From the NCBI GenBank assembly GCA_965612745.1, contig CBFDTD010000003.1, positions 1,816 through 65,815 of the forward strand: 64,000 bases of DNA, written 5' to 3'. The position numbers were made by a program, and so were the translations under genes. The DNA comes from an uncultured bacterium (lineage in GTDB: Bacteria > Chloroflexota > Anaerolineae > B4-G1). This document shows, piece after piece, positions 4,940 to 62,757 of this stretch. The notes beneath the pieces are model-generated. The model made no database searches, was not told the DNA's origin, and worked only from the letters and a program-made list of their open reading frames with translations. Every line of letters starts with the position of its first letter. Position 1 is the stretch's first letter.

Positions 4940-5386
4940 TTATTTGCCTTTGACTTTGATGACCTTTGGCTTTGTCTCCTCGGACTTAGGCAGAGTGAGC
5001 GTCAGCACGCCGTTCTCGAAGACCGCCTCGGCCTTATCTGCATCCACAGGCACGTTGAGCGTCAGCGTGCGCGAGAAGGCACCATAAGGCCGTTCCTGGA
5101 ACAGGTACTCGACGTTCTCCAGCGGCGGCCGCAACTCCCCCCGGATGCTCAGAGTGTCACCTTCAATGGTAATATCCACCTCATCAGGGGTCAGCCCTGG
5201 CAACGATGCGGTGATGACAATCTCCTCCGGGGTCGTGTACACGTCTAGTGGGAGCCGGAACGGACGCTCCCGTGTGCCCTCTCCCCAATTTCGTGTCGGG
5301 CGCACGAAACTTTCCTCAAAGAGCCGATCCATTGCCTCGCGCAAGGTCATCATCTCGCGCCATGGATCCCAACGTGTCATAGTCAT
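4940..5386 (-). CDS. Hsp20/alpha-crystallin family small heat-shock protein
   Basis: 148 aa. Alpha-crystallin domain pattern (LPLDVYTTPEEIVITASLPG...AVFENGVLTLTLPK). RBS GGGAGGTGAT. Confidence 0.85.
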   Translation of the reverse strand: MTMTRWDPWREMMTLREAMDRLFEESFVRPTRNWGEGTRERPFRLPLDVYTTPEEIVITASLPGLTPDEVDITIEGDTLSIRGELRPPLENVEYLFQERPYGAFSRTLTLNVPVDADKAEAVFENGVLTLTLPKSEETKPKVIKVKGK

Positions 5387-5452
5387 CTCATCACCTCCCT
5401 GCTTTCATAGGGACTTGTGGGGGGAGATTCAATCTCCCCCCATATTTGCTGA

Positions 5453-5908
5453 TTACTTGCCCTTGGCCTTGACCTTGATCGTCTTGGGCCTGACCTCTTC
5501 GGCCTTGGGCAGGGTCAAGGTCAGAATACCGTTCTCGAACTCGGCCTCTGCGTCGTCGGCCACGACCGGGACCGGCAGAGTTAGCGAACGGCAGAAGGAG
5601 CCATAGCGACGCTCACGGCGAATGTAATTCTCCTCTTTGACCTCTTCCTCAGCCTTGGTCTCGCCCTTAATGGTCAGGGTGTCGCCAGCGATGCTGACAT
5701 CCACATCCTCGGGCTTGACGCCGGGAATGGCCGTCTTGACAACGATGGCGTCATCGGTCTCATACATGTCTACGGCCAACGTTTCCGCCCCTAACGGGGC
5801 CAGCCACCCGGTTCGCGGCCTCACAAAACTTTCCTCAAAGAGTCTGTCCATCGCCTCCCGCAGGCTGATCAGGTCACGGAAGGGCTCCCAACGCACCAGA
5901 CTTGTCAT
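5453..5908 (-). CDS. Hsp20/alpha-crystallin family small heat-shock protein (tandem paralogue)
   Basis: 151 aa, similar to the downstream copy (LAVDMYETDDAIVVKTAIPG...AEFENGILTLTLPK). Confidence 0.85.
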   Translation of the reverse strand: MTSLVRWEPFRDLISLREAMDRLFEESFVRPRTGWLAPLGAETLAVDMYETDDAIVVKTAIPGVKPEDVDVSIAGDTLTIKGETKAEEEVKEENYIRRERRYGSFCRSLTLPVPVVADDAEAEFENGILTLTLPKAEEVRPKTIKVKAKGK

Positions 5909-6083
5909 CTCTGCACCTCCTTACTTACCAGGTTTGATGGTAGAATCTCATACCGTTAACAAGCGTCCTTATTCTTAGCATCATTCCATTAGATCGGCAT
6001 AAGAGCCGTATTAGAAATATACTAGAAATAGAAATGCCCCCGCAATGTGGGCAGGGGCAAGGCCCAAATGAACAATAAGGTAC

Positions 6084-6131
6084 GGAGGCCCGGCTTCAGC
6101 CGGGAAATCCCCGCTGAAGCGGGGCCTCCGG
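6084..6131. repeat. Core-only copy of the MITE-A hairpin module (GGAGGCCCGGCTTCAGCCGG-AAATCCCCGCTGAAGCGGGGCCTCCGG)
   Basis: Sequence identity to the internal hairpin pair of the 99-bp element. Lacks the GGCTAAAAT ends. Confidence 0.6.
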
Positions 6132-6167: not shown

Positions 6168-6938
6168 TCATGCCCCGGCGGGCAGTGATGGGAGAGACCC
6201 GCTTGAATTTTCAGACACGCTCTCGGAGGATTGCTCTTTGCGGAAATCTATGAAGCGGTATCCCACCCCGCGCTCGGTGAGGATGTAGCGAGGGTGGGAT
6301 GGATCGGGTTCGATCTTCTGCCGCAGGTAGGTGATGTATAGACGTAGGTAGTGGATTTCCTCACGATATTCGTAGCCCCAGACCTTGGCCAGCAACGTCT
6401 CGTAGGGCACCACCCAGCCAGCGTTTTCGATCAGGTGATAGAGCAGGCGGAATTCAGTGGGGCGCAACTTGATGCGCTTCCCTTCGACGATGACGTGTTG
6501 GCTGTTGAAATCCACACTTAACCGGTCATCAATGCGAAGGATGGCCTTTTCGGGCATCACCGGCCCCCGAGTGCGGCGCAGCACTGCTCTGACGCGGCTG
6601 ACGAGTTCGCGTGCACCAAAGGGCTTGGTCACGTAATCGTCAGCCCCTAGTTCCAGCCCACGTACCTTGTCCTCCTCGTCGGCCCGAACGGTCAGCATAA
6701 TCACCGGGACATTGGAGATCTCGCGCAGCATCTCCAACGTCTCGAAGCCATCCAGTTCGGGCATCATCACATCGAGGATGACCAGGTCGGGTAGGTGCGT
6801 GCGCACCTTATCAAGCGCCTCCAGACCGTTGTGGGCCTCTATCACCCGGTAGCCTTCCAGTTCCAGGTTCATACGGATGAAGCGCGTCATGCGGGCCTCG
6901 TCATCCACGACGAGGATAAGTTCACGTTGATTAGACAT
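6168..6938 (-). CDS. OmpR-family two-component response regulator (receiver plus winged-helix)
   Basis: LVVDDE...[14 protein letters not shown]...VIMLT receiver motifs. C-terminal trans_reg_C ([25 protein letters not shown]). Start taken at MSNQREL (RBS GGGTGG). Confidence 0.85.
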
Positions 6939-9257: not shown

Positions 9258-9321
9258 GATCGCTAAATACTGCGGAAGCCCCGCTTTAGCGGAAACTCCC
9301 CGGCTGAAGCCGGGCCTCCGG
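9258..9321. repeat. MITE-A-derived fragment (hairpin core plus degenerate GCTAAATAC end) in the PP2C / vWA intergenic spacer
   Basis: GGAAGCCCCGCTTTAGCGGAAACTCCCCGGCTGAAGCCGGGCCTCCGG matches the MITE-A core in inverted order. Confidence 0.5.
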
Positions 9322-17434: not shown

Positions 17435-17614
17435 CGGTAACTGTCGCCCCGCAAAATCCAGGCATTCTCAGCCGTCGGTTCGCCGAAGTGCTTTCCGTGG
17501 CAATTCGTGGTCAACATCTTCTCAACTATATATATTGTATTCATCCTGCCCGTTCAGGCAAACTGACGTGGGTGCTTAGCGTGTTTATTCGCCGGTTCTC
17601 GGTGCAAAGGGGGG

Positions 17615-17650
17615 TCGGAGGCCCGGCTTCTGCCGGGAAAACCCCGAGGC
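17615..17650. repeat. MITE-A hairpin-core fragment
   Basis: GGAGGCCCGGCTTCTGCCGGGAAAACCCCGAGGCTC resembles the first hairpin of MITE-A. Confidence 0.4.
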
Positions 17651-17757
17651 TCTCTGAGAGTTGCCGTGGTGGGCGCACCGGAGGTCCGAACTTGTTCGGG
17701 TTTGCCGGCGGGCAACCCCAACAAGTTGGGGCATCCGAATCCTGGCCACGGGAAATC
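17641..17757 (+). repeat. Type-B ~117-bp multi-hairpin repeat (CCGAACTTGTTCGGG / CCCCAACAAGTTGGGG hairpins)
   Basis: About 93 percent identical to the reverse complement of 60062-60178. Both copies abut a MITE-A copy. Confidence 0.7.
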
Positions 17758-17804
17758 CCAAAGATCCAACCCCGATAAATCGGGGCCTCCGTCGAGTTTT
17801 GCAC

Positions 17805-17903
17805 GGGTGTGGCTAAAATCAGTGGGACGTCCGGCTTCAGCCGGAAAATCCCCGCTGAAGCGGGGCCTCCGGCCTTTTCTCCCCACGAATTTTAGCCAGA
17901 CTC
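17805..17903 (+). mobile_element. MITE-A full copy (99 bp), TIR GGGTGTGGCTAAAAT / ATTTTAGCCAGACTC, flanked by 9-bp TSD GTTTTGCAC
   Basis: Direct repeat GTTTTGCAC at 17796-17804 and 17904-17912. Terminal inverted repeats of about 15-18 bp. Internal hairpins CCGGCTTCAGCCGG and CCCCGCTGAAGCGGGG. Confidence 0.8.
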
Positions 17904-18137
17904 GTTTTGCACCGGAAACGCGCTCTACCTCCCACGAATTCCAGCCAGAATAAACGATATGTGGCAGGCAGCCAGCGCCACCTGCCACATGGAGTTGCTC
18001 TTTGCACTGCTCAGCTGAACCGCCTCAGATACTTTTCCAAATCTCGACGAGGGATGATCCCGTACAGCGCAATGACCTTCGCCTAGTGCCTAACAGCAAA
18101 CGATATGGCCAAACCTTCAAGCGCGATAGCGGATAGA

Positions 18138-29140: not shown

Positions 29141-29449
29141 ATGACTGAACTTATCTTCATCCGCCACGGGCAAACCCACGCCAACGTTGCCGGTCGCTGG
29201 GAGGGGTGGAGCGACAGTGCGCTCACTCTCCTGGGCTTGGCGCAGGCCAGGGCGGTCGCTTGTCGGCTGGCACCCAGGACTCTGGCGATTTTGCTCGTAG
29301 TAACGACTTCAGTCGTTCAAAGCGAGGTCAGAGCAACTGAAGTCGCCATTACGACTCCCATATCTTGCGGTTCATCGGCCGTCATACCGCAAATGTGGGG
29401 GGCTCCAAAATTCGCCCGACTCCAGTCACCAAGTTCACGGGGGTGTTGA
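29141..29449 (+). pseudogene. N-terminal fragment of a histidine phosphatase (phosphoglycerate mutase family)
   Basis: MTELIFIRHGQTHANVAGRWEGWSDSALTLLGLAQARAVACRLAP matches the RHGxT...GW.D..L...G..QA start of PGAM-family enzymes. Similarity is lost after about 50 aa and the ORF ends early. Confidence 0.4.
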
Positions 29450-33356: not shown

Positions 33357-33378
33357 GCCTCACAATACGGCCGGTCAT

Positions 33379-33466
33379 GGGTGTGGCTAAAATCAGTGGG
33401 ACGTCCGGCTTCAGCCGGAAAAGCCCCGCCTCCGGCCTTTTCTTCCCACGAATTTTAGCCAGACTC
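33379..33466 (+). mobile_element. MITE-A copy (88 bp, internal 11-bp deletion) with TSD CCGGTCAT
   Basis: Flanking direct repeat CCGGTCAT at 33371-33378 and (T)CCGGTCAT at 33467-33475. Confidence 0.75.
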
Positions 33467-33885
33467 TCCGGTCATCACCTGGCTGTTGTAATATTGCTCT
33501 GTATGGTCACATCCTCCGCTCAAGCGAGTTAGGATGTGTCACGGCCAGGCAACGACCTCTGCCTCTTGCTCGAAGAGGGTCGGGGATTGAGGTTATACGC
33601 CCCGGCTGTTCATTGACGAATGTTGGAGCAAGAGGGAGGGGTTGTGCGTGCCTGGTATTAAGTCTATGCGGGCGGATGCTCCCTCTACCTCTGGGGAATT
33701 GGCCGCCGGGTGTCCCCAGGCCGATTGGGTCTGGAGGCCAGGAGGGCGATGCAGGGCGGGTTTGGAAGAAAGAGTGAAGTGAACAATATTGGAGATACTG
33801 TTGCCGTCGTGGTGTGGACATCTGGAGAACCGCTGATCGTGCCTGATGCTCGCACTGGTTCCTACCGCTGTGTGGAGGTGGCACA

Positions 33886-34162: not shown

Positions 34163-34256
34163 GGGTGCCGCTAAAATCGGTTGGACGTCCGGCTTCAGCC
34201 GAAAAATCCCCGCTGAAGCGGGGCGTTTGGCCTCTCCTCCCATTCATTTTAGCCAA
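34163..34256 (+). repeat. Degenerate MITE-A copy
   Basis: GCCGCTAAAATCGGTTGGACGTCCGGCTTCAGCCGAAAAATCCCCGCTGAAGCGGGG...CATTTTAGCCA. Ends are diverged. Confidence 0.6.
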
Positions 34257-34300
34257 TTTTCCACTGTTCCCCTTCCATGCTATAATCCGCTGCCACGGCT

Positions 34301-35390: not shown

Positions 35391-36598
35391 TCTTCAACTC
35401 CATAGGCCCGTTCGACCGTCTCCACCAACCGCTCCCACGCGAACCGCTGCCTCACGTCGTTGGCGGCCGCCTGGCCCAACCGCTCTCGCAACTCCCGGTT
35501 CTCCAGCAGCCGCACCACCGCCTCGGCAAACCCCTCTACGTCGCCGGGGGCCACCAGCCAGCCGGTTTCGCCGTGGCGGATGTACTCCCGGTTCTGCCCC
35601 ACCGCCTCGGCCACGACCGGTACACCGGCTGCCAAAAGATCCAGCAATTTCACCGCGCACTTGGTCCGGTTGACCAGCGTGTCGTCGAAGGGGTAGATGG
35701 CGAGGTCAGCCTGGGTGAAGTAGGCTGAGAGTGCCTCGGACTCGACCCAACCGACGTATTCGACCGCATCGGCTAGGCCGGTTTCTTGGGCCAACCCCAG
35801 CAGTTGTTCTTCCTCGCCAAACAATCCTTTCCCTACCACAAGCAGTCGTACCTCCGGCGCCGTTTCACGCACACGGTGCAGCACTTCAATGACGCGACGG
35901 ACGGGGAACTCGAAGAATCTCGTGTATAACAAGATGCAGGATGCAGGATGCGAGGTGCAAGACGGGACATCTCTCGTTTCTTGCTTCCTGCTTCCTGCCT
36001 CCTGCCTCCTGCCTCCTGCCTCCTGCCTCCTTGCCACGCCGTTGGGGACGTAGAACACTTGCTGGGGCGGTACGCCCATTGCCCAAACCAGGCTCTCCAA
36101 TGTGCGGCTGGCGACGGTGACCGCGTTGGCGTGAGTGAGGCCCCAGCGCTCTTGCCAGGCGAAGAAGCGCCGCTGGGCTGGAGTGTAGCCGCCGATCTCA
36201 TTCCAGCCGCCGGGACCCTCCCAGTCATCGGTGTCCACTACCAGGCGCGGTCTGCGCGTGCGGGGGAGGCGGGCCAGCAACCAGTGGGTCAGGCCGCTGT
36301 AGGCTTTAGGTTTAAAGAAGTGCACCACATCGGGGTGCAGGGCCAGCGCCCGGCGGGTCAGCCGAAGGGCGATGAGGGCGTGAAATAGCAGTGGAAGACG
36401 CGGCGGCAGAGAAATGTTCTCGATGTGGATTCCCTCCTTCTCCCAACACCGGCCGGCGTCCTCCGGGTTCTGCCACGGGGGGAGAAGCATGGTCACGGCG
36501 TGACCGCGCACTGCCAGCGCTTTCGCCATCGGCAGCGCGCGTACACTCATCGTGCCTCGGGGCCGCAGCCCGAAGGGGCCGACCATTACGACGTTCAT
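35387..36598 (-). CDS. GT4-family (GT-B) glycosyltransferase containing an in-frame heptanucleotide-repeat insertion
   Basis: N-domain MNVVMVGPFG...; C-domain EAVGQNREYIRHGETGWLVAPGD (E-x7-E region). An insert RRQEAGGRRQEAGSRKQETRD is encoded by a (CAGGAGG)n repeat. Confidence 0.75.
   Translation of the reverse strand: MNVVMVGPFGLRPRGTMSVRALPMAKALAVRGHAVTMLLPPWQNPEDAGRCWEKEGIHIENISLPPRLPLLFHALIALRLTRRALALHPDVVHFFKPKAYSGLTHWLLARLPRTRRPRLVVDTDDWEGPGGWNEIGGYTPAQRRFFAWQERWGLTHANAVTVASRTLESLVWAMGVPPQQVFYVPNGVARRQEAGGRRQEAGSRKQETRDVPSCTSHPASCILLYTRFFEFPVRRVIEVLHRVRETAPEVRLLVVGKGLFGEEEQLLGLAQETGLADAVEYVGWVESEALSAYFTQADLAIYPFDDTLVNRTKCAVKLLDLLAAGVPVVAEAVGQNREYIRHGETGWLVAPGDVEGFAEAVVRLLENRELRERLGQAAANDVRQRFAWERLVETVERAYGVEE
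35984..36032. repeat. Heptanucleotide tandem repeat (CYTCCTG)x7 inside the GT4 coding sequence
   Basis: CTTCCTG CTTCCTG CCTCCTG x4 CCTCCTT. An adjacent (ATGCAGG)x2-3 repeat lies at 35937-35958. Confidence 0.85.
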
Positions 36599-36671
36599 AC
36601 CCCCTCAACAACGAACAGCCGGGGCACGGAGATACACGGCCCCGACACTCACACTACTCACCAAGTTGAGA

Positions 36672-37081
36672 TTAACGCCCGCCGATACCCTTGCTATGGG
36701 CAAGGATTGACTCAGGCCCAACGACCCTCAAACCATCTGCATCAAACATCTGCCAGTCACCAACGTCGTAGGTGTAGACTTTGCGCACCCCTGCAACCAA
36801 CGCCGCTGCTGCGTGGCGGGCATCGTGCACCCGTCTTGCGGTGAGGCCGTGACTGGCTGCCAATTCGACCGCAAGCAGGATCACCTCAGCGCTCCATATA
36901 CCTCACTCAGAATGCCAGCCGTAGTGCAGGCAAACAACTCACCACGACGTGCGCGCTCGACTAACAGCCGCGCCTCCTGATGGCGAGGATCCCCCTTGAG
37001 CAGAGCCCCGATAAAGACGCCCGCGTCCAATAGCACGCTCTGGGACACATTGCCTCCCTTAACTCTCGGCATAGACGGCAT
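36672..37081 (-). pseudogene. PIN-domain VapC toxin split by a frameshift into two ORFs (36881-37081 and 36672-36884)
   Basis: N-terminal part VLLDAGVFIGALLKGDPRHQEA; C-terminal part LTARRVHDARHAAAALVAGVRKVYTYDVGDWQMF. The two frames overlap at GTGA and are fused by a 1-nt shift. Confidence 0.55.
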
Positions 37082-37271
37082 CCTTCCAACCTCTGGGCAC
37101 GTAGCCTTCTAATACAGGAAGTGGTTTTAGGCGCGGCCTCGGCTCAATGGTGACTTCCTCGCCGTCGGGCATACGTACAACGAGGCGTGTATAGCGCCTA
37201 GCCACGTCCCACAACACCTCTTCCAAGGACCGCTCCTTAATATCATCCAACACCAGAGTTTGGGTCGTCAT
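37059..37271 (-). CDS. Putative VapB-type antitoxin
   Basis: 70 aa. RBS GGAGGT 6 nt before ATG. Directly upstream of, and overlapping, the PIN gene. Confidence 0.5.
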   Translation of the reverse strand: MTTQTLVLDDIKERSLEEVLWDVARRYTRLVVRMPDGEEVTIEPRPRLKPLPVLEGYVPRGWKDAVYAES

Positions 37272-37383
37272 GTCCTTACCTCCAACAACGCCACTCCTGC
37301 GCCGCATCTACATACCCCACCGGCTATGAGAAAGCAACCATCGGGCCGCAGCCCGAAGGGGCCGACCATCACGATGTGCATAT

Positions 37384-39225
37384 TCACTCCACGGTAACAC
37401 TCTTCGCGAGATTTCTGGGTTGGTCCACGTCGCAGCCTCGCCGCACTGCCAGATGATACGCCAGCAATTGCAGCGGCACGACGTTGACCACCGGTGAAAG
37501 CAGCGGCGGCGTCGGTGGGGCGTAGAGCACGTAGTCGGCTTTGGTTGTGATGTCCCCGTCCCCTTCCGTCGCCAGTGCGATGACGATGCCACCTCGCGCT
37601 TTGACCTGCTCGACCTGGCTCACCATCTTGTCGTAGACATGGTCGCGTACGGCGATGGTGACGACGGGCATCGCCTCGTCAATGAGCGCGATAGGGCCGT
37701 GTTTCATCTCCCCGGCCGGATAGCCCTCGGCGTGGATGTAGGAAATCTCTTTCAGTTTAAGCGCCCCTTCCAGAGCGATGGGATAGTTGATGCCCCGGCC
37801 CAGGTACAGGAAATGCTCCCGATCGTAGAAGATATTAGCCAGTTGCTCGTATTCGTCGCCGTGGTTCAGAGTGCGACCCACCATGTCCGGCAGTCGGGCC
37901 AGGTCGTTCACCAGATGCCGCAACTGCGCTCTCTCTAGCACGCCGCGCAGTTCCCCCAGATAGCAGCCCAACAGGTAGAGGTCCACCAGGCTAGCAGTGA
38001 ACGCTTTGGTCGAAGCCACGCCAATCTCTGGGCCGGCGTGCATCAGGATGTAGCCGTCGGAGAGGCGCATCGCCTGGCTGCCGATGACGTTGACGATGCT
38101 CCACAGCCCTGCTCCCTTCGCCCGCGCCTCTTCCATCGCTGCCAACGTGTCCACCGTCTCACCGCTCTGCGTGATGGCCAGCACGGCAGTGTTCTCATTG
38201 ATGATGGGGTCGCGGTAGCGGAACTCGGAGCCGTAGTCCACCTCGACCGGCACGCGGGCCAGCGCCTCCAGAATGAACTTGCCCACGAGGCCGGCGTAGG
38301 CCGAGGTGCCGCAGGCGACGATAATCACTTTCTCCAACGAGCATGCCTTCTCCGGCGTCAATTCCAGATGCTCCAGTCGCACCCGCCCGGCGTCGAAGTC
38401 GGCCCGGCCGCGGATGGTATCAGTGACGGAGCGGGCCTGCTCGTAGATTTCCTTCTGCATAAAATGACGGAACTCCCCCTTGGCCGCTGCCACGGGGTCC
38501 CAGGGTATGGTGTGCACCTCTGCTGTGACCGGCTCGCCACTCAGCGTCGTCACCCGCGCCCCGTCCCGAGTCACCACTGCCATCTGCCGGTCTTCGAGGA
38601 AGATCATCCGGCGGGTGTGCTCCAGGATGGCGGGGATGTCGGAGGCGACGAACATTTCTCCCTCTCCTATCCCGATGGTGAGGCCACCAGCGTTGCCCAG
38701 GCGAGCGGCAACGATGCGGTCGGGTTCGCGGCTGCTGAGGAAGACGAAGGCGTTGGCCCCTTTTACGTGGGTCAGCGCCCGGCGCACCGCCGTCTCCAGG
38801 TCAGCCCCGCCCGCCATGTACCCCTCGACCAGGTGCACCACCACCTCAGTGTCGGTCTCGGAGGCGAAGCACCGTCCCTCGGCCTCCAGTTCCTGTCGCA
38901 GTTGGAGGAAGTTTTCGATGATGCCGTTGTGGACGACGGCGACCTCGCCGGTGACCCCAACGTGGGGATGGGCGTTGCGGCGACTGGGCTCGCCGTGAGT
39001 AGCCCAACGGGTATGGCCGATGCCGATCTGTCCACTCATCGGCTCGGCGTCCACCAGTTCCATCAGGCGGGCCAGTTTGCCGACCTCGCGTCGCACGGCG
39101 ATGGTGTCGCCCTCGACCACCGCCAGCCCGGCTGAGTCGTAGCCCCGATACTCCAGCCGTTTCAGTCCTTCAAGGATGATGGGGGTTGCGTCTCGCAGCC
39201 CCACGTAGCCGACTATGCCACACAT
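37384..39225 (-). CDS. glmS: Glutamine--fructose-6-phosphate aminotransferase
   Basis: N-terminal MCGIVGYVG (Ntn Cys), two SIS domains, C-terminal VTVE. 613 aa. Confidence 0.9.
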   Translation of the reverse strand: MCGIVGYVGLRDATPIILEGLKRLEYRGYDSAGLAVVEGDTIAVRREVGKLARLMELVDAEPMSGQIGIGHTRWATHGEPSRRNAHPHVGVTGEVAVVHNGIIENFLQLRQELEAEGRCFASETDTEVVVHLVEGYMAGGADLETAVRRALTHVKGANAFVFLSSREPDRIVAARLGNAGGLTIGIGEGEMFVASDIPAILEHTRRMIFLEDRQMAVVTRDGARVTTLSGEPVTAEVHTIPWDPVAAAKGEFRHFMQKEIYEQARSVTDTIRGRADFDAGRVRLEHLELTPEKACSLEKVIIVACGTSAYAGLVGKFILEALARVPVEVDYGSEFRYRDPIINENTAVLAITQSGETVDTLAAMEEARAKGAGLWSIVNVIGSQAMRLSDGYILMHAGPEIGVASTKAFTASLVDLYLLGCYLGELRGVLERAQLRHLVNDLARLPDMVGRTLNHGDEYEQLANIFYDREHFLYLGRGINYPIALEGALKLKEISYIHAEGYPAGEMKHGPIALIDEAMPVVTIAVRDHVYDKMVSQVEQVKARGGIVIALATEGDGDITTKADYVLYAPPTPPLLSPVVNVVPLQLLAYHLAVRRGCDVDQPRNLAKSVTVE

Positions 39226-39317
39226 AATGTTCCCTCCCTCATCGTCACCCGGATCCGTACCCGTGATCGGGCCGGGCCCGCTAGGGCATGTAAAGAGCGT
39301 TTCGAAGAGACCTGGGT

Positions 39318-39365
39318 GGAGGCCCGGCTTCAGCCGGGAGATCCCCGCTGAAGCGGGGCCTCCGG
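39318..39365. repeat. Core-only copy of the MITE-A hairpin module
   Basis: GGAGGCCCGGCTTCAGCCGGGAGATCCCCGCTGAAGCGGGGCCTCCGG. Confidence 0.6.
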
Positions 39366-41805: not shown

Positions 41806-41852
41806 GCCTCTCACTTGACATCTTCGCTCAATCCGCGTACCATTTGTGATAT

Positions 41853-42024
41853 GGGTGTGGCTAAAATCAGTGGGACGTCCGGCTTCAGCCGGAAAATCCC
41901 CGCTGAAGCGGGGCCTCCGGCCTCTTCTCCGGCTTCAGCCGAGCAGGACGTCCGGCTTCAGCCGGAAAATCCCTGCTGAAGCGGGGCCTCCGGCCTTTTC
42001 TCCTCACGAATTTTAGCCAGACTC
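41853..42024 (+). mobile_element. MITE-A copy with internal duplication of the hairpin core (172 bp), TSD TTGTGATAT
   Basis: Direct repeat TTGTGATAT at 41844-41852 and 42025-42033. Two tandem GACGTCCGGCTTCAGCCGGAAAATCC..GCTGAAGCGGGGCCTCCGGCC units. Confidence 0.8.
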
Positions 42025-42031
42025 TTGTGAT

Positions 42032-42796
42032 ATGTACACAGCAGGCATAGACGTAGGCGCGATCACCGCCAAGGCGGCCATCCTCAGCGATGGGGAATTA
42101 CTCGCCACGGCGCTCATCTTTGCCGGATACGACCGGGCCGCCGCCGCACTCCAGGTGCTCGATCAGGCACTGACGCAGGCGGGGCTCACTCGTGACCAAA
42201 TTGCTCGCCTGGTCGCCACCGGCTATGGCCGCGTGCAGGTCCCCGGCGCAGACCGCACCGTCACCGAGATCACCTGCCACGCCCGGGGTGCGCATTACCT
42301 CTGCCCCGACGTGCACACCGTGATTGACATCGGCGGGCAGGATAGCAAGGGCATCGCCGTTGGTCCAGGCGGCAAAGTGCTCGACTTCGTGATGAACGAC
42401 AAGTGTGCCGCCGGCACCGGGCGCTTCCTGGAGGTGATGGCCCACGCGCTGGAGGTGGACCTGGCCGACTTTGGCCGCCTGGCCCTCTCCGCCCCGCGTC
42501 GCGCCAAGATCTCCAGCACCTGCACCGTCTTCGCCGAGTCGGAGGTCATCACTCACCTGACTGCTGGCGTGCCCAGGGATGAGATCGCCGCCGGCATTCA
42601 CGAGGCCATCGCTGCCCGCATCGCCACCATGGTCGGGCGCATACGGGTGCAGGACGTGGTCGTGCTAACCGGCGGTGTGGCCCGCAACGCAGGAGTCGCC
42701 CGTATGCTGGAGGAGAAACTGGGCCACGCCATCCTGGTGCCGGAGCACGCCCAACTGGCCGGCGCTATCGGCGCAGCCCTCATCGCTGGGGGGTAG
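42032..42796 (+). CDS. 2-hydroxyacyl-CoA dehydratase activator (HgdC/BadF/BcrAD-type ATPase)
   Basis: MYTAGIDVGAITAKAAI...IDIGGQDSKGI...DKCAAGTGRFLE is the acetate/sugar-kinase-fold CoA-enzyme activase signature. Confidence 0.8.
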   Translation: MYTAGIDVGAITAKAAILSDGELLATALIFAGYDRAAAALQVLDQALTQAGLTRDQIARLVATGYGRVQVPGADRTVTEITCHARGAHYLCPDVHTVIDIGGQDSKGIAVGPGGKVLDFVMNDKCAAGTGRFLEVMAHALEVDLADFGRLALSAPRRAKISSTCTVFAESEVITHLTAGVPRDEIAAGIHEAIAARIATMVGRIRVQDVVVLTGGVARNAGVARMLEEKLGHAILVPEHAQLAGAIGAALIAGG

Positions 42797-42823: not shown

Positions 42824-43861
42824 ATGCAATCTCCAACCCCCAATCTCCAGTCCCCCAATCTCCACTCCCCAATCGGCTTCCTCACCGCCTACGTGCCGGA
42901 GGAACTCTTCCACGCGGCGGGCTTCACTCCCGTGTTCATCTTCCACACTCCGGACGACCACGGCTACGCCCGCGCCCACCTGCCCGGCTTCACCTGCTGG
43001 ATCGCCGGTTCCGCCCTCGACCAGGCCCTCGCCGGCGAACTGGACGGCCTGGCCGGGATGGCCCTTGCCCAGACCTGCGACACTATGCAAGGGCTAACCG
43101 ACCTTTGGCGACGCAATGTGCCTCACATCCCCCTCTTCCACTTCGGGATGCCGCTGCGCCTGGACGGCCCCTCCGCCCGCGCCTACCTCCTGGCCGAACT
43201 CCGATCCTTGCGTGAGCGAGTGCAGGCCGTGACCGGTCGCCCCATCTCCGACGACGCGCTGCGGGAGAGCATCGCGCTCTACAACCGCACCCGCACCCTG
43301 GTGCGCCGCCTTTACACCCACGCCGCCGACTTCGCCCCACCCGACCTGTACGCGCTGGTGTGGGCCGCTCTCTCCTCTACTCCTCTGCCCCCCTGCTCCC
43401 CTGCTCCTCTGCCCTCTTGCTCCTCTGCTCCCCTGCTTCTCCTCGTCGGCTCTGCCCTGGCTGACCCCGTCCTCTTTGACGTCATCGCCCAGGTTGGCGC
43501 CCGCGTGGCCGGTGACCTGCTGGACCTGGGGGAACGCTACTTCGCGGTGGACGCCGCCGAGGACGGCGACCCCCTCGAGGCCATCGCCGACCGGCTGTTG
43601 GCGCTGGTGCCCACTCCGACCAAGCATCATCCCCAGCACACCCGCACCGCCCACCTGCTGTCGCTGGTGCGGGAGCGCAACGCCGACGGTGTCATCTTCG
43701 CCCGTCAGAAATTCTGCGAGCCCCACGGCTTCGACTACGTGCAACTGGCCCACGCACTGGACCAGGTCGGCGTGCCCCACCTGCTGGTCGAACTGGAGCA
43801 GGCCTCTCAGGCCGGCCAACTGCGCACGCGGGTGGAGGCGTTTGTGGAAATGCTGGCTTAG
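42824..43861 (+). CDS. 2-hydroxyacyl-CoA dehydratase subunit (HgdB-like) carrying a CT-rich octamer-repeat insertion
   Basis: GFLTAYVPEELFHAAGFTPV and LDGLAGMALAQTCDTMQGL align to the HgdB N-terminal blocks. C-terminal FARQKFCEPHGFDYVQL. Insert PLPPCSPAPLPSCSSAPLLLL. Confidence 0.75.
   Translation: MQSPTPNLQSPNLHSPIGFLTAYVPEELFHAAGFTPVFIFHTPDDHGYARAHLPGFTCWIAGSALDQALAGELDGLAGMALAQTCDTMQGLTDLWRRNVPHIPLFHFGMPLRLDGPSARAYLLAELRSLRERVQAVTGRPISDDALRESIALYNRTRTLVRRLYTHAADFAPPDLYALVWAALSSTPLPPCSPAPLPSCSSAPLLLLVGSALADPVLFDVIAQVGARVAGDLLDLGERYFAVDAAEDGDPLEAIADRLLALVPTPTKHHPQHTRTAHLLSLVRERNADGVIFARQKFCEPHGFDYVQLAHALDQVGVPHLLVELEQASQAGQLRTRVEAFVEMLA
43384..43441. repeat. Imperfect octanucleotide (YCTGCTCC)-like tandem repeat / 75-nt polypyrimidine tract inside the HgdB-like gene
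   Basis: CCTGCTCC CCTGCTCC TCTGCCC TCTTGCTCC TCTGCTCC CCTGCTTC. Confidence 0.7.
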
Positions 43862-48226: not shown

Positions 48227-48316
48227 TGAGCCTCCGGTGCGAAACAAGCGGCCCCGCTCGTATGAGCGGGGCTGCCCTCAATTGGCAAGTTTTTTCCCCT
48301 TATGCTAAAATAATGT

Positions 48317-48415
48317 GAGTCTGGCTAAAATTCGTGGGGAGAAAAGGCCGGAGGCCCCGCTTCAGCGGGGATTTTCCGGCTGAAGCCGGACGTCCCACTG
48401 ATTTTAGCCACACCC
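48317..48415 (-). mobile_element. MITE-A full copy (inverted), TSD AAATAATGT / AAATAATAT
   Basis: Flanking 9-bp repeats at 48308-48316 and 48416-48424 (8/9 identical). Confidence 0.75.
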
Positions 48416-48461
48416 AAATAATATTGACGTGCGCGCTCGGATATCGCGTGAGGTGAGCGGC

Positions 48462-54818: not shown

Positions 54819-55307
54819 CGCAATCTCCTTGCCGGTAAGCGTGAAAGGGTGCACGGTGGTCGAAACCGCGTGCTACGTGCTGCGAAACTGACCAGCGTCG
54901 GTTATAAATGTCGGCGCAGGCCGACTTGGCTGCGCGTAGCCCTGGTCACCGGGCGGGGAATTTTCTGATAGCCTGATTATAACCGCCTTTGCGCTATGCG
55001 CCAAATGCGGGCGTATCATCTGGGGACAAGAATAAGCGGGAAAGGGGACTGCAGCGTTCGTTATTCGACCTTTTCTGATAGCCAAGCGTAAGCATAATCA
55101 AACGTCCATTTGCCCCTGGAGCCAATACCTCCACAGGTGGGATTTTCGGGAGACAAAGCCCAATATGTGAGGGTATGTGGCAACCTCGACGGAACCACGC
55201 GGTCTGTCGCTTGTCCCAAATGTGTGACGGTCGCCAAATCCGCATTTTGAATTTATGCAAAGTATGCTATAATGAAGTGGGAAATGAAGGTACCCCAAAG
55301 GATGACC

Positions 55308-58775: not shown

Positions 58776-58810
58776 TTGACCAAGCGGTGGAGGAATAGAG
58801 CGGATGTCTC

Positions 58811-58866
58811 GCTTCAGTGGGGGAATTTCCGGCTGAAGCCGGACGTCCCATGGATTAGCCACATCC
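58811..58866 (-). repeat. Truncated MITE-A copy (right half only)
   Basis: GCTTCAGTGGGGGAATTTCCGGCTGAAGCCGGACGTCCCATGGATTAGCCACATCC. Confidence 0.6.
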
Positions 58867-59911: not shown

Positions 59912-59933
59912 ATGCCCACCAGATATTGATACG

Positions 59934-60032
59934 AGCCTGGCTAAAATTCGTGGGGAGAAAAGACCGGAGGCCCCGCTTCAGCGGGGATTTTCCGGCTGAA
60001 GCCGGACGTCCCACTGATTTTAGCCACATCCT
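59934..60032 (-). mobile_element. MITE-A full copy (inverted), TSD TATTGATAC
   Basis: Perfect 9-bp direct repeat at 59925-59933 and 60033-60041. Confidence 0.8.
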
Positions 60033-60061
60033 ATTGATACCCGCACTAACAATATTAACCG

Positions 60062-60178
60062 GATCTGGGATTTCCCGTGGCCAGGATTCGGATGCCCCAA
60101 CTCGTTAGGGTTGCCTGCCGGCAAACCCGAACAAGTTCGGGCCTCCGGTGCGCCCACCACGGCAATTCCCAGAGAGCC
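60062..60178 (-). repeat. Type-B repeat (inverted copy)
   Basis: Reverse complement is about 93 percent identical to 17641-17757. Confidence 0.7.
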
Positions 60179-62359: not shown

Positions 62360-62546
62360 TATGTTCCTTGCAAATATCCCACAGCATAGCAGGGTTCACT
62401 GCGGATTCAGAGGCCCTTTCGTAATCCCCTGCCCGGCGATTGAAGTCGCCGGCTACGCGCAGCCAAGTCGGCCTGCGCCGACTTCATAACCGACGCAGGT
62501 CGGTTGCGCAGCACGCGGTTTCAACCACCGTGCCTCCTTTTGATAT

Positions 62547-62645
62547 GAGTCTGGCTAAAATTCGTGGGGAGAAAAGGCCGGAGGCCCCGCTTCAGCGGGG
62601 ATTGTCCGGCCGGAGCCGGACGTCCCACTGATTTTAGCCACACCC
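62547..62645 (-). mobile_element. MITE-A full copy (inverted), TSD TTTTGATAT / TTTTGATGT
   Basis: 9-bp flanking repeats at 62538-62546 and 62646-62654 (8/9). Confidence 0.75.
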
Positions 62646-62757
62646 TTTTGATGTGCACATACGAGTTATGAAAGGCTCACTAGATAAGAAAAACTGAGAG
62701 GGGCAGGCTCTCAGTTCTGGAAGCAAGGCATGTGAATTATAATGCAAAGTGGTCAAT

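Follow-up and report, generated by a model that had tools for sequence, protein, structure and literature searches.

The window analysed here is the whole 64,000-nt stretch of contig CBFDTD010000003.1 (assembly GCA_965612745.1, positions 1,816 to 65,815) of an uncultured Anaerolineae bacterium. In the spacer between the PPDK gene and dnaG, both encoded on the minus strand, it carries a 99-nt repeat which we consider very probably to be a miniature inverted-repeat transposable element (MITE). The repeat has no coding capacity and consists of two 22-nt terminal inverted repeats (TIRs) flanking a 55-nt palindromic core. It is bracketed by two copies of a 9-mer, the target-site duplication (TSD). 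The 15-nt end pattern GGGTGTGGCTAAAAT was searched in the window with up to 3 mismatches, and the number of matches was compared with that in 100 shuffles. There were 13 matches against 0.93 expected, no shuffle (0/100) reached 13, and the matches paired into six intact elements. Together with two decayed copies, they make eight MITE-derived loci in 64 kb:

17796-17912, plus strand: index copy, with TSD GTTTTGCAC at 17796-17804, MITE at 17805-17903 and TSD GTTTTGCAC at 17904-17912
17805-17826, plus strand: left 22-nt TIR of the index copy, GGGTGTGGCTAAAATCAGTGGG
17830-17845, plus strand: core hairpin 1, TCCGG-CTTCAG-CCGGA, with a CGTC tag before it
17850-17865, plus strand: core hairpin 2, CCCCG-CTGAAG-CGGGG
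17882-17903, minus strand: right 22-nt TIR of the index copy, reverse complement GAGTCTGGCTAAAATTCGTGGG
33370-33475, plus strand: 88-nt copy at 33379-33466, TSD G/TCCGGTCAT (8/9)
34163-34260, plus strand: decayed full-length copy, 82-88% identity, both TIRs eroded, flank repeat not recognisable
41844-42033, plus strand: 172-nt copy at 41853-42024, TSD TTGTGATAT on both sides
48308-48424, minus strand: 99-nt copy at 48317-48415, TSD AAATAATGT / AAATAATAT, i.e. AAATAATG/AT
58802-58866, minus strand: decayed truncated copy, left TIR with a deletion, core kept, right TIR lost
59924-60040, minus strand: 99-nt copy at 59933-60031, TSD TATTGATAC on both sides, downstream of lysS
62538-62654, minus strand: 99-nt copy at 62547-62645, TSD TTTTGATAT / TTTTGATGT, i.e. 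TTTTGATA/GT, in the divergent greA-serS spacer

The initial annotation, made from the letters of the sequence, had described a repeat family with TIRs and a separate flank repeat for each copy, and the end matches and the six intact copies show this family to be real. Several details had to be revised. The count of at least 11 copies had pooled the eight MITE-derived loci with four loci that carry the core alone and no TIRs, and these are treated separately below. The inverted repeat, given as 15 nt, reaches about 22 nt (consensus G-R-G-T-S-TGGCTAAAAT-NN-GTGGG). The copy placed at 59934-60032 lies one base to the left, at 59933-60031. Of the proposed 8-9-bp duplication the 9-bp value held, and the supposed 8-bp repeat CCGGTCAT is actually a 9-mer with one mismatch.

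Four of the intact copies were 99 nt long and showed pairwise identities of 93-100%, the copies at 17805 and 48317 being 100% identical; the remaining two were 88 and 172 nt. The first base of the MITE is G and the last is C, and within one copy the left and right TIRs agree at 18 of 22 positions. The flanking 9-mers of the six intact copies agree at 9, 8, 9, 8, 9, and 8 of 9 positions, in coordinate order. The 88-nt copy has an 11-nt internal deletion that takes out most of hairpin 2, and in the 172-nt copy the core is repeated by a 73-nt internal duplication. According to the gene and Pfam tables, every MITE and core-only locus falls between called genes, in agreement with the initial annotation, whose placements in the PP2C/vWA spacer and upstream of dnaG and glmS were likewise confirmed. 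The copy at 33379 starts 23 nt 3' of the stop codon of a 71-aa gene, and the copy at 48317 has an HNH gene on one side and a GAF-domain gene on the other. No transposase gene was found in the window.

A genome collection was scanned, one genome per species, with the query GRGTSTGGCTAAAATNNGTGGG. The scan returned 33 loci (loci and contigs retrieved for comparison are numbered with the prefix L), nearly all in metagenome-assembled genomes (MAGs) of Anaerolineae or other Chloroflexota and many at contig ends. The core of the window's MITE was absent from all 33. Short elements of 89-156 nt with the same ends, other cores, and 9-bp flank repeats were present at L001, L003, L007, L009, L011, L015, L017, L020, L025, L029, and L033. 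Two long elements were recovered as well, at L005 (131-1783, 1653 bp) and, in a decayed state, at L013 (1645 bp). Altogether, ends of the MITE type were carried by insertion sequences (ISs) of 1645-1653 bp in L005, L013, and L063-L069, which belong to other Anaerolineae assemblies.

The product of the L005 element (497 aa) matched the NCBIfam model NF033572, ISKra4 family transposase, with 279 bits (cutoff 205), and gave a weak match to Pfam UPF0236. Its homologues numbered more than 4000 and were located mostly on contigs of 1.6-2.5 kb, as expected for a repeated IS. An intact IS at L064 (1376-3027) had the perfect 9-bp TSD AAATCAATC on both sides, and the same IS was found at another site in L065 and L066, again with a perfect 9-bp TSD, ATTTGAAAT, on both sides. 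The MITE TIR has 19-20 of 22 positions in common with the ends of the elements encoding NF033572 proteins, and the left TIR GGGTGTGGCTAAAATCAGTGGG terminates both the ISKra4-type IS and other MITEs. A full IS with the termini of the MITE, anticipated by the initial annotation, thus exists in other Anaerolineae, and IS and MITE are alike in ends, duplication length, and target type. Flank repeats, too, recurred beyond the window: they were present at a further MITE copy on a JGI metagenome contig (L062 3601-3698, flank repeat AATTCAG) and at 14 same-ended elements in other assemblies. The C/G at TIR position 5 was considered as a marker of left and right ends and was rejected, since the transposase gene is oppositely oriented to that base in L005 and L064.

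Comparison of the two flanks of 21 elements showed, on average, agreement at 8.3 of 9 positions and gave the roughly palindromic target consensus R-W-W-T-S-A-W-W-T with 78% A+T; at its three central positions the frequencies were 79% for T (position 4), 86% for S (position 5), and 81% for A (position 6). The preference for AT-rich targets suggested earlier is therefore borne out. As the genome has about 61% G+C, AT-rich targets are rare inside genes, and this suffices to explain the intergenic siting of the copies. The AT-rich consensus also makes BLAST alignments between copies overrun the element by a few bases.

One insertion could be compared with its empty site. In the window, a promoter TTGACA-17-TACCAT (41815-41843) is followed by TTGTGATAT, the MITE at 41853-42024, and the second TTGTGATAT, which is overlapped by the ATG (42032) of a BcrAD/BadFG-type activase gene. 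The closest activase homologues (identity up to 92%) carry the label Anaerolineae bacterium or Chloroflexota bacterium in their sources. The site is empty in L070 and L071, two related species whose activase proteins are 92% and 88% identical to that of the window: TTGACA-17-TACCAT is followed by 7-8 nt and then by ATG and the same first codons. The spacing fits exactly one copy of the target, so that an orthologous empty site, which the initial annotation had named as a check, was found for this copy, one of the six; the 9-mer sequence itself is not conserved in the two relatives. With its -10 box, 7 nt, and ATG, the arrangement resembles a leaderless promoter, and it is kept in both L070 and L071. 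In the source population the promoter is now displaced from the start codon of the activase gene, by 108 nt where the allele is 99 nt long and by 181 nt where it is 172 nt long. At the old distance a new ATG is formed by the left TSD and the first G of the element; the frame that it opens enters the element and terminates within it. One effect visible at the gene level is the splitting of a leaderless-type promoter from its start codon, and the insertion may have altered activase expression.

Exact protein matches placed the window in a population that occurs in several hot-spring metagenomes, among them Great Boiling Spring sediment (JGI 3300003332), JGI 3300005098, JGI 3300028891, and ENA ERZ940666, and to which the NCBI MAGs GCA_011192185.1 and GCA_029933215.1 also belong. 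Its contigs were 99.5-100% identical to the window, and 28 of them were compared with it. Going by the labels of the activase homologues, the host would be an uncultured thermophilic member of the Anaerolineae. At the MITE loci, length differences among these contigs were confined to the interior of the copies. The copy at 33379, 88 nt in the window, was 99 nt in L038 and L039, which means that its deletion postdates the insertion. The copy at 41853 was 172 nt in the window and in L035 and 99 nt in L034 and L036. The TSD of the copy at 48317 was perfect in L054, hence the mismatch in the window arose after insertion. A divergence of L047 at 60066 was examined as a candidate empty site and turned out to be a jump through a different repeat. 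Several contigs of the population end inside MITE copies, and these repeats probably cause assembly breaks in this hot-spring Anaerolineae population.

Taken together, TIRs, 9-bp duplications, a common target consensus, the presence of the same ends on a transposase-encoding IS, and one empty site were observed. We consider it very probable that the repeat is a 99-nt MITE that depends in trans on an ISKra4-family transposase (Mutator-like DDE, p-MULT 4) for its mobility. The earlier description, of a transposon that is non-autonomous, has TIRs, duplicates 9 bp, and prefers AT-rich targets, is supported by the flank repeats, the IS with the same ends, and the empty site. In the proposed mechanism, the ISKra4-family transposase would act in trans on the MITE, bind both inverted repeats, and insert the element at a staggered 9-bp cut in the AT-rich, roughly palindromic target R-W-W-T-S-A-W-W-T. 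Movement would probably proceed via an excised circular intermediate, as in IS256 and TnGBS. We infer that an ISKra4-type enzyme moved the window's own copies, and the circular intermediate and the timing of copy movement are to be read in the same conditional way. The IS has no double hairpins beside its ends, which makes it probable that transposition does not require the core.

Several observations weigh against this interpretation. First, there was no insertion polymorphism: the six insertions were present in all overlapping contigs (28), with no direct sign of ongoing movement. Second, the window lacks a transposase gene, and the source population yielded no ISKra4-type IS: a metagenome scan for the partner, made with the exact left end and one base that excludes the MITE, returned only one further MITE copy. 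This negative is a weak one, as the scan required an exact 22-nt match. Third, no promoter consensus was found within 13-17 bp of the scanned window copies, the distance from sigma-A promoters at which some ISKra4 members are reported to insert (PMC3942029). In L009 and L029, both from one MAG, a canonical promoter (TTGCCA or TTGACC, a 17-nt spacer, and TATAAT) begins at base 8 of the right-hand TSD; promoter-proximal insertion is not a family-defining feature of ISKra4. Fourth, the core-only loci, which lack TIRs and TSDs, are unexplained by the ISKra4 mechanism. The first two points also bear on the age of the insertions. Recent activity, as suggested in the initial annotation, is no more than possible, since all six insertions are fixed in the population and no partner IS was found there; the identical copies at 17805 and 48317 point to fairly recent transposition or to gene conversion.

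The core was a distinct subject. Its two hairpins can fold separately or as one long imperfect hairpin, and the 99-nt element folded far better than shuffled sequences, both as RNA (-52 kcal/mol, z = -5.5) and as DNA (z = -4.4). When 20 distinct hairpins were gathered by the loop motif alone, 92.5% of the stem cells were paired vs. 69.6% in shuffles, and 29 double-sided stem changes were counted vs. 11.4 in shuffles; neither value was reached in any of 500 shuffles, the sequences of the 20 hairpins being related. The loops C-TTCA-G and C-TGAA-G were constant while the stems covaried across variants. A DNA palindrome can keep such symmetry without function. At four loci of the window the double hairpin occurred alone, within a perfect outer stem GGAGGCC...GGCCTCC, and no TIR or flank repeat was found at any of them:

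6083-6131: core-only double hairpin with the GGAGGCC...GGCCTCC stem
9272-9321: core-only double hairpin, opposite orientation, in the PP2C / DnaJ-vWA spacer
17616-17791: core-only element at 17616-17647 and 17770-17791, hairpin 2 split by a 120-nt long-hairpin repeat (17648-17767)
39317-39365: core-only double hairpin upstream of glmS

The same double-hairpin design with other stems was seen in the core-only loci, at 29277-29352 in the window, at L062 2425-2530, and in the MITEs of L003, L004, L011, L017, and L020. GTAG stands at the outer end of both arms at 29277-29352 and L062 2425-2530 and in L003, L004, L017, and L020, a placement that corresponds to the layout of head-to-head REP dimers. 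CGTC before arm 1 was found only in the window MITE; the core-only loci have neither GTAG nor CGTC and carry GGAGGCC. The two internal GC hairpins reported by the initial annotation are therefore present and yet not private to this MITE family: they form a module like a dimer of repetitive extragenic palindromes (REPs), common to sister MITE lineages. Two side observations belong here. The element at 29277-29352 (right end lost) and its full copy at L062 2425-2530 form a third MITE-like subfamily with ends GAGTCTGGCGAATTTTG and a GTAG-tagged double-hairpin core, GTAGTAACGACTTCAGTCGTT ... GCGACTGAAGTCGCCACTAC. In L038 (1-1368), an IS630-type element with HTH and DDE_3 genes lies in the hairpin-2 loop of the core-only copy upstream of glmS (window position 39351), which recalls IS elements that target REP hairpins.

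The core-only loci are not MITEs; they resemble REP dimers and probably differ in origin from the MITE copies. The core itself is most likely a REP-dimer-like passenger, or else a palindromic repeat that existed before and became enclosed by IS ends. A more tentative idea, which we regard as rather unlikely, is that the core is a selected module, either a protein-binding pair of DNA hairpins or a stabiliser or processing site at the RNA level, with two independent routes of spread. It is suggested by loops that stay constant while stems covary across diverged Anaerolineae lineages. If it were true, one route would be the ISKra4-type ends with 9-bp duplications and the other TIR-less, REP-like dimers, and the family would be a case in which the cargo of a DDE-type MITE is a REP-type element.

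The resemblance of the core to REPs raises an alternative for the whole family, namely that these are palindromes of the REP type, including bacterial interspersed mosaic elements (BIMEs) and REP doublets forming hairpins (REPINs), spread by a REP-associated tyrosine transposase (RAYT; HUH, IS200/IS605-type), with the TIRs being incidental. The core is indeed built as a head-to-head REP dimer, with two inverted GC stem-loops that form separate hairpins or a single long one, and it stands alone without TIRs at the four loci listed above. The outer GTAG on both arms of the sister cores and the CGTC before arm 1 of the window MITE recall the tags of REPs known in Chloroflexi, and REP dimers within longer palindromes are known in Anabaena (PMC3733652). 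However, HUH transposition gives no target duplication, whereas 9 bp are duplicated around every copy that has TIRs, and these TIRs are of the kind that ends a DDE-type IS. Furthermore, the core-only loci of the window bear GGAGGCC instead of the tags, and no Y1 transposase gene was found in the window, in L062, or in the fetched contigs of the population. As an account of the family this explanation is improbable; it may apply to the origin of the core and to the core-only copies.

Still less probable is that the repeat is a structured RNA gene or cis-element (a small RNA, a terminator, or an mRNA-stabilising hairpin) that has been kept by selection, its repetition reflecting function. Such a role would agree with the folding of the 99-nt element, with the pairing of covarying stems around a constant loop, and with the position of several copies directly after stop codons or in operon spacers. 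The copies, however, lie in either orientation relative to neighbouring genes, no promoter or terminator consensus was found in or beside the scanned copies, and palindromic symmetry can be kept at the DNA level without an RNA function. No relevant family was matched in Rfam: a search of the window at the gathering threshold returned tRNA only, and an E-value search of 17435-18137 gave only RsmY at 15 bits, which is chance level. The arrival of the copies is explained by the TSDs, the empty site, and the IS-type ends, and an RNA role could be secondary and co-opted. The least probable alternative is a MITE moved by another family that duplicates 9 bp (e.g., IS4, IS1, or IS256 types) with a coincidental likeness to ISKra4 TIRs; the lack of a partner IS in the source population would suit it, but 19-20 of 22 TIR positions, the TSD length, and the target consensus are common to the MITE and the NF033572-encoding elements.

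Other repeats were noted in the neighbourhood of the MITE copies. A second family of about 120 nt is represented by 17648-17767 (plus strand), 60061-60178 (minus strand), and a third copy in L047 at about 6180-6300. It folds as a single long hairpin with imperfect pairing (-64 to -73 kcal/mol), has ends resembling inverted repeats (GGCTCTCTGGGAATTGCCGTGG / CCACGGGAAATCCCAGATCC) and 8-bp flank repeats (AACCCCGA; R-GTTAATA), and gave no match in Rfam. In the window, each of the two copies has a MITE 25-37 nt away, and one of them is inside hairpin 2 of a core-only element. This family is probably another MITE-like element. A repeat of about 95 nt (85% identity) occurs on opposite strands at 62451-62540, where it abuts the MITE at 62547, and at 54844-54941; its copies, in opposite orientations, are each upstream of a gene on the minus strand, greA in one case and a MoxR-type ATPase gene in the other.

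Further from the MITEs, a 783-bp segment at 36599-37343, between glmS and a glycosyltransferase gene, contains three small open reading frames of about 70, 63-66, and 70 aa. Direct repeats of 50 nt (36560-36609 and 37343-37392, 86% identical) flank the segment. Since it is missing from L034, L036, and L039 of the same population, it represents an indel polymorphism. Short tandem repeats are present at 43372-43435 and 35979-36031, with periods of 8 nt (CTCCTCTG-like) and 14 nt (TCCTGCC-like), respectively, and several metagenome contigs stop near 43.8 kb. At 4940-5908 there are two tandem Hsp20-type genes whose DNA stretches are 74-77% identical (5297-5404 vs. 5816-5926); this pair is an ordinary tandem duplication.

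The MITE had been called previously unannotated. This holds within the scope covered here: there is no Rfam family for it, and literature searches revealed no ISKra4-derived MITE. What is novel is the example of an ISKra4-type MITE, bacterial MITEs as a kind being well known, and the element is otherwise ordinary selfish DNA. The ISKra4 family, a little-studied group of prokaryotic relatives of eukaryotic Mutator elements, gains from it a non-autonomous derivative, and the 21 insertions supply a clear target consensus for the family. The covarying double hairpin, common to several MITE lineages and to TIR-less copies, is the one feature that may repay work.

Classical bacterial MITEs, such as the Correia elements of Neisseria, RUP of Streptococcus pneumoniae, Nezha of cyanobacteria, and ERIC/IRU, are short, non-coding, intergenic, multicopy elements with TIRs of an IS family, a TSD of fixed length, and folding into a long hairpin, and they may part promoters from genes or join transcripts. 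The window MITE differs from classical MITEs in its partner family and in its TSD, with 9 bp duplicated at R-W-W-T-S-A-W-W-T where Correia elements and RUP duplicate TA, and it differs further in that its interior is a REP-dimer-like module rather than residual IS sequence.

Prokaryotic Mutator-like transposons have inverted repeats of 18-39 bp with a terminal C and direct repeats of 8 or 9 bp, form a circular intermediate, and count Chloroflexi among their hosts (PMC3942029; Guerillot et al., 2014). The MITE agrees with the ISKra4 family in its 22-bp inverted repeats, 5'-G/3'-C ends, 9-bp direct repeats, and Chloroflexi host, and its 22-nt ends are those of the 1.65-kb IS that matches NF033572. 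Unlike that IS, it is 99 nt long and has no transposase gene, and unlike some ISKra4 members its window copies do not lie 13-17 bp from sigma-A promoters.

REPs are imperfect palindromes of 20-40 nt, frequently arranged as inverted pairs, and are spread without target duplication by a RAYT whose gene has REPs on its flanks. With REP, BIME, and REPIN elements the core shares two inverted GC stem-loops of about 20 nt within an outer stem, an extragenic position, and occurrence on its own as well. The MITE copies differ from REPs in their IS-type TIRs and 9-bp TSDs, and from REPs accompanied by a RAYT in that no RAYT gene was found in the window or in L062. Palindromes of the REP type tagged with GTAG or CGTC occur in Chloroflexi (Di Nocera et al., 2013), and the sister cores, with their outer GTAG, are like these tagged REPs, unlike the core-only copies of the window, which bear neither tag. 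A precedent for a REP dimer placed between inverted repeats is provided by Anabaena, where REP dimers are embedded in longer palindromes.

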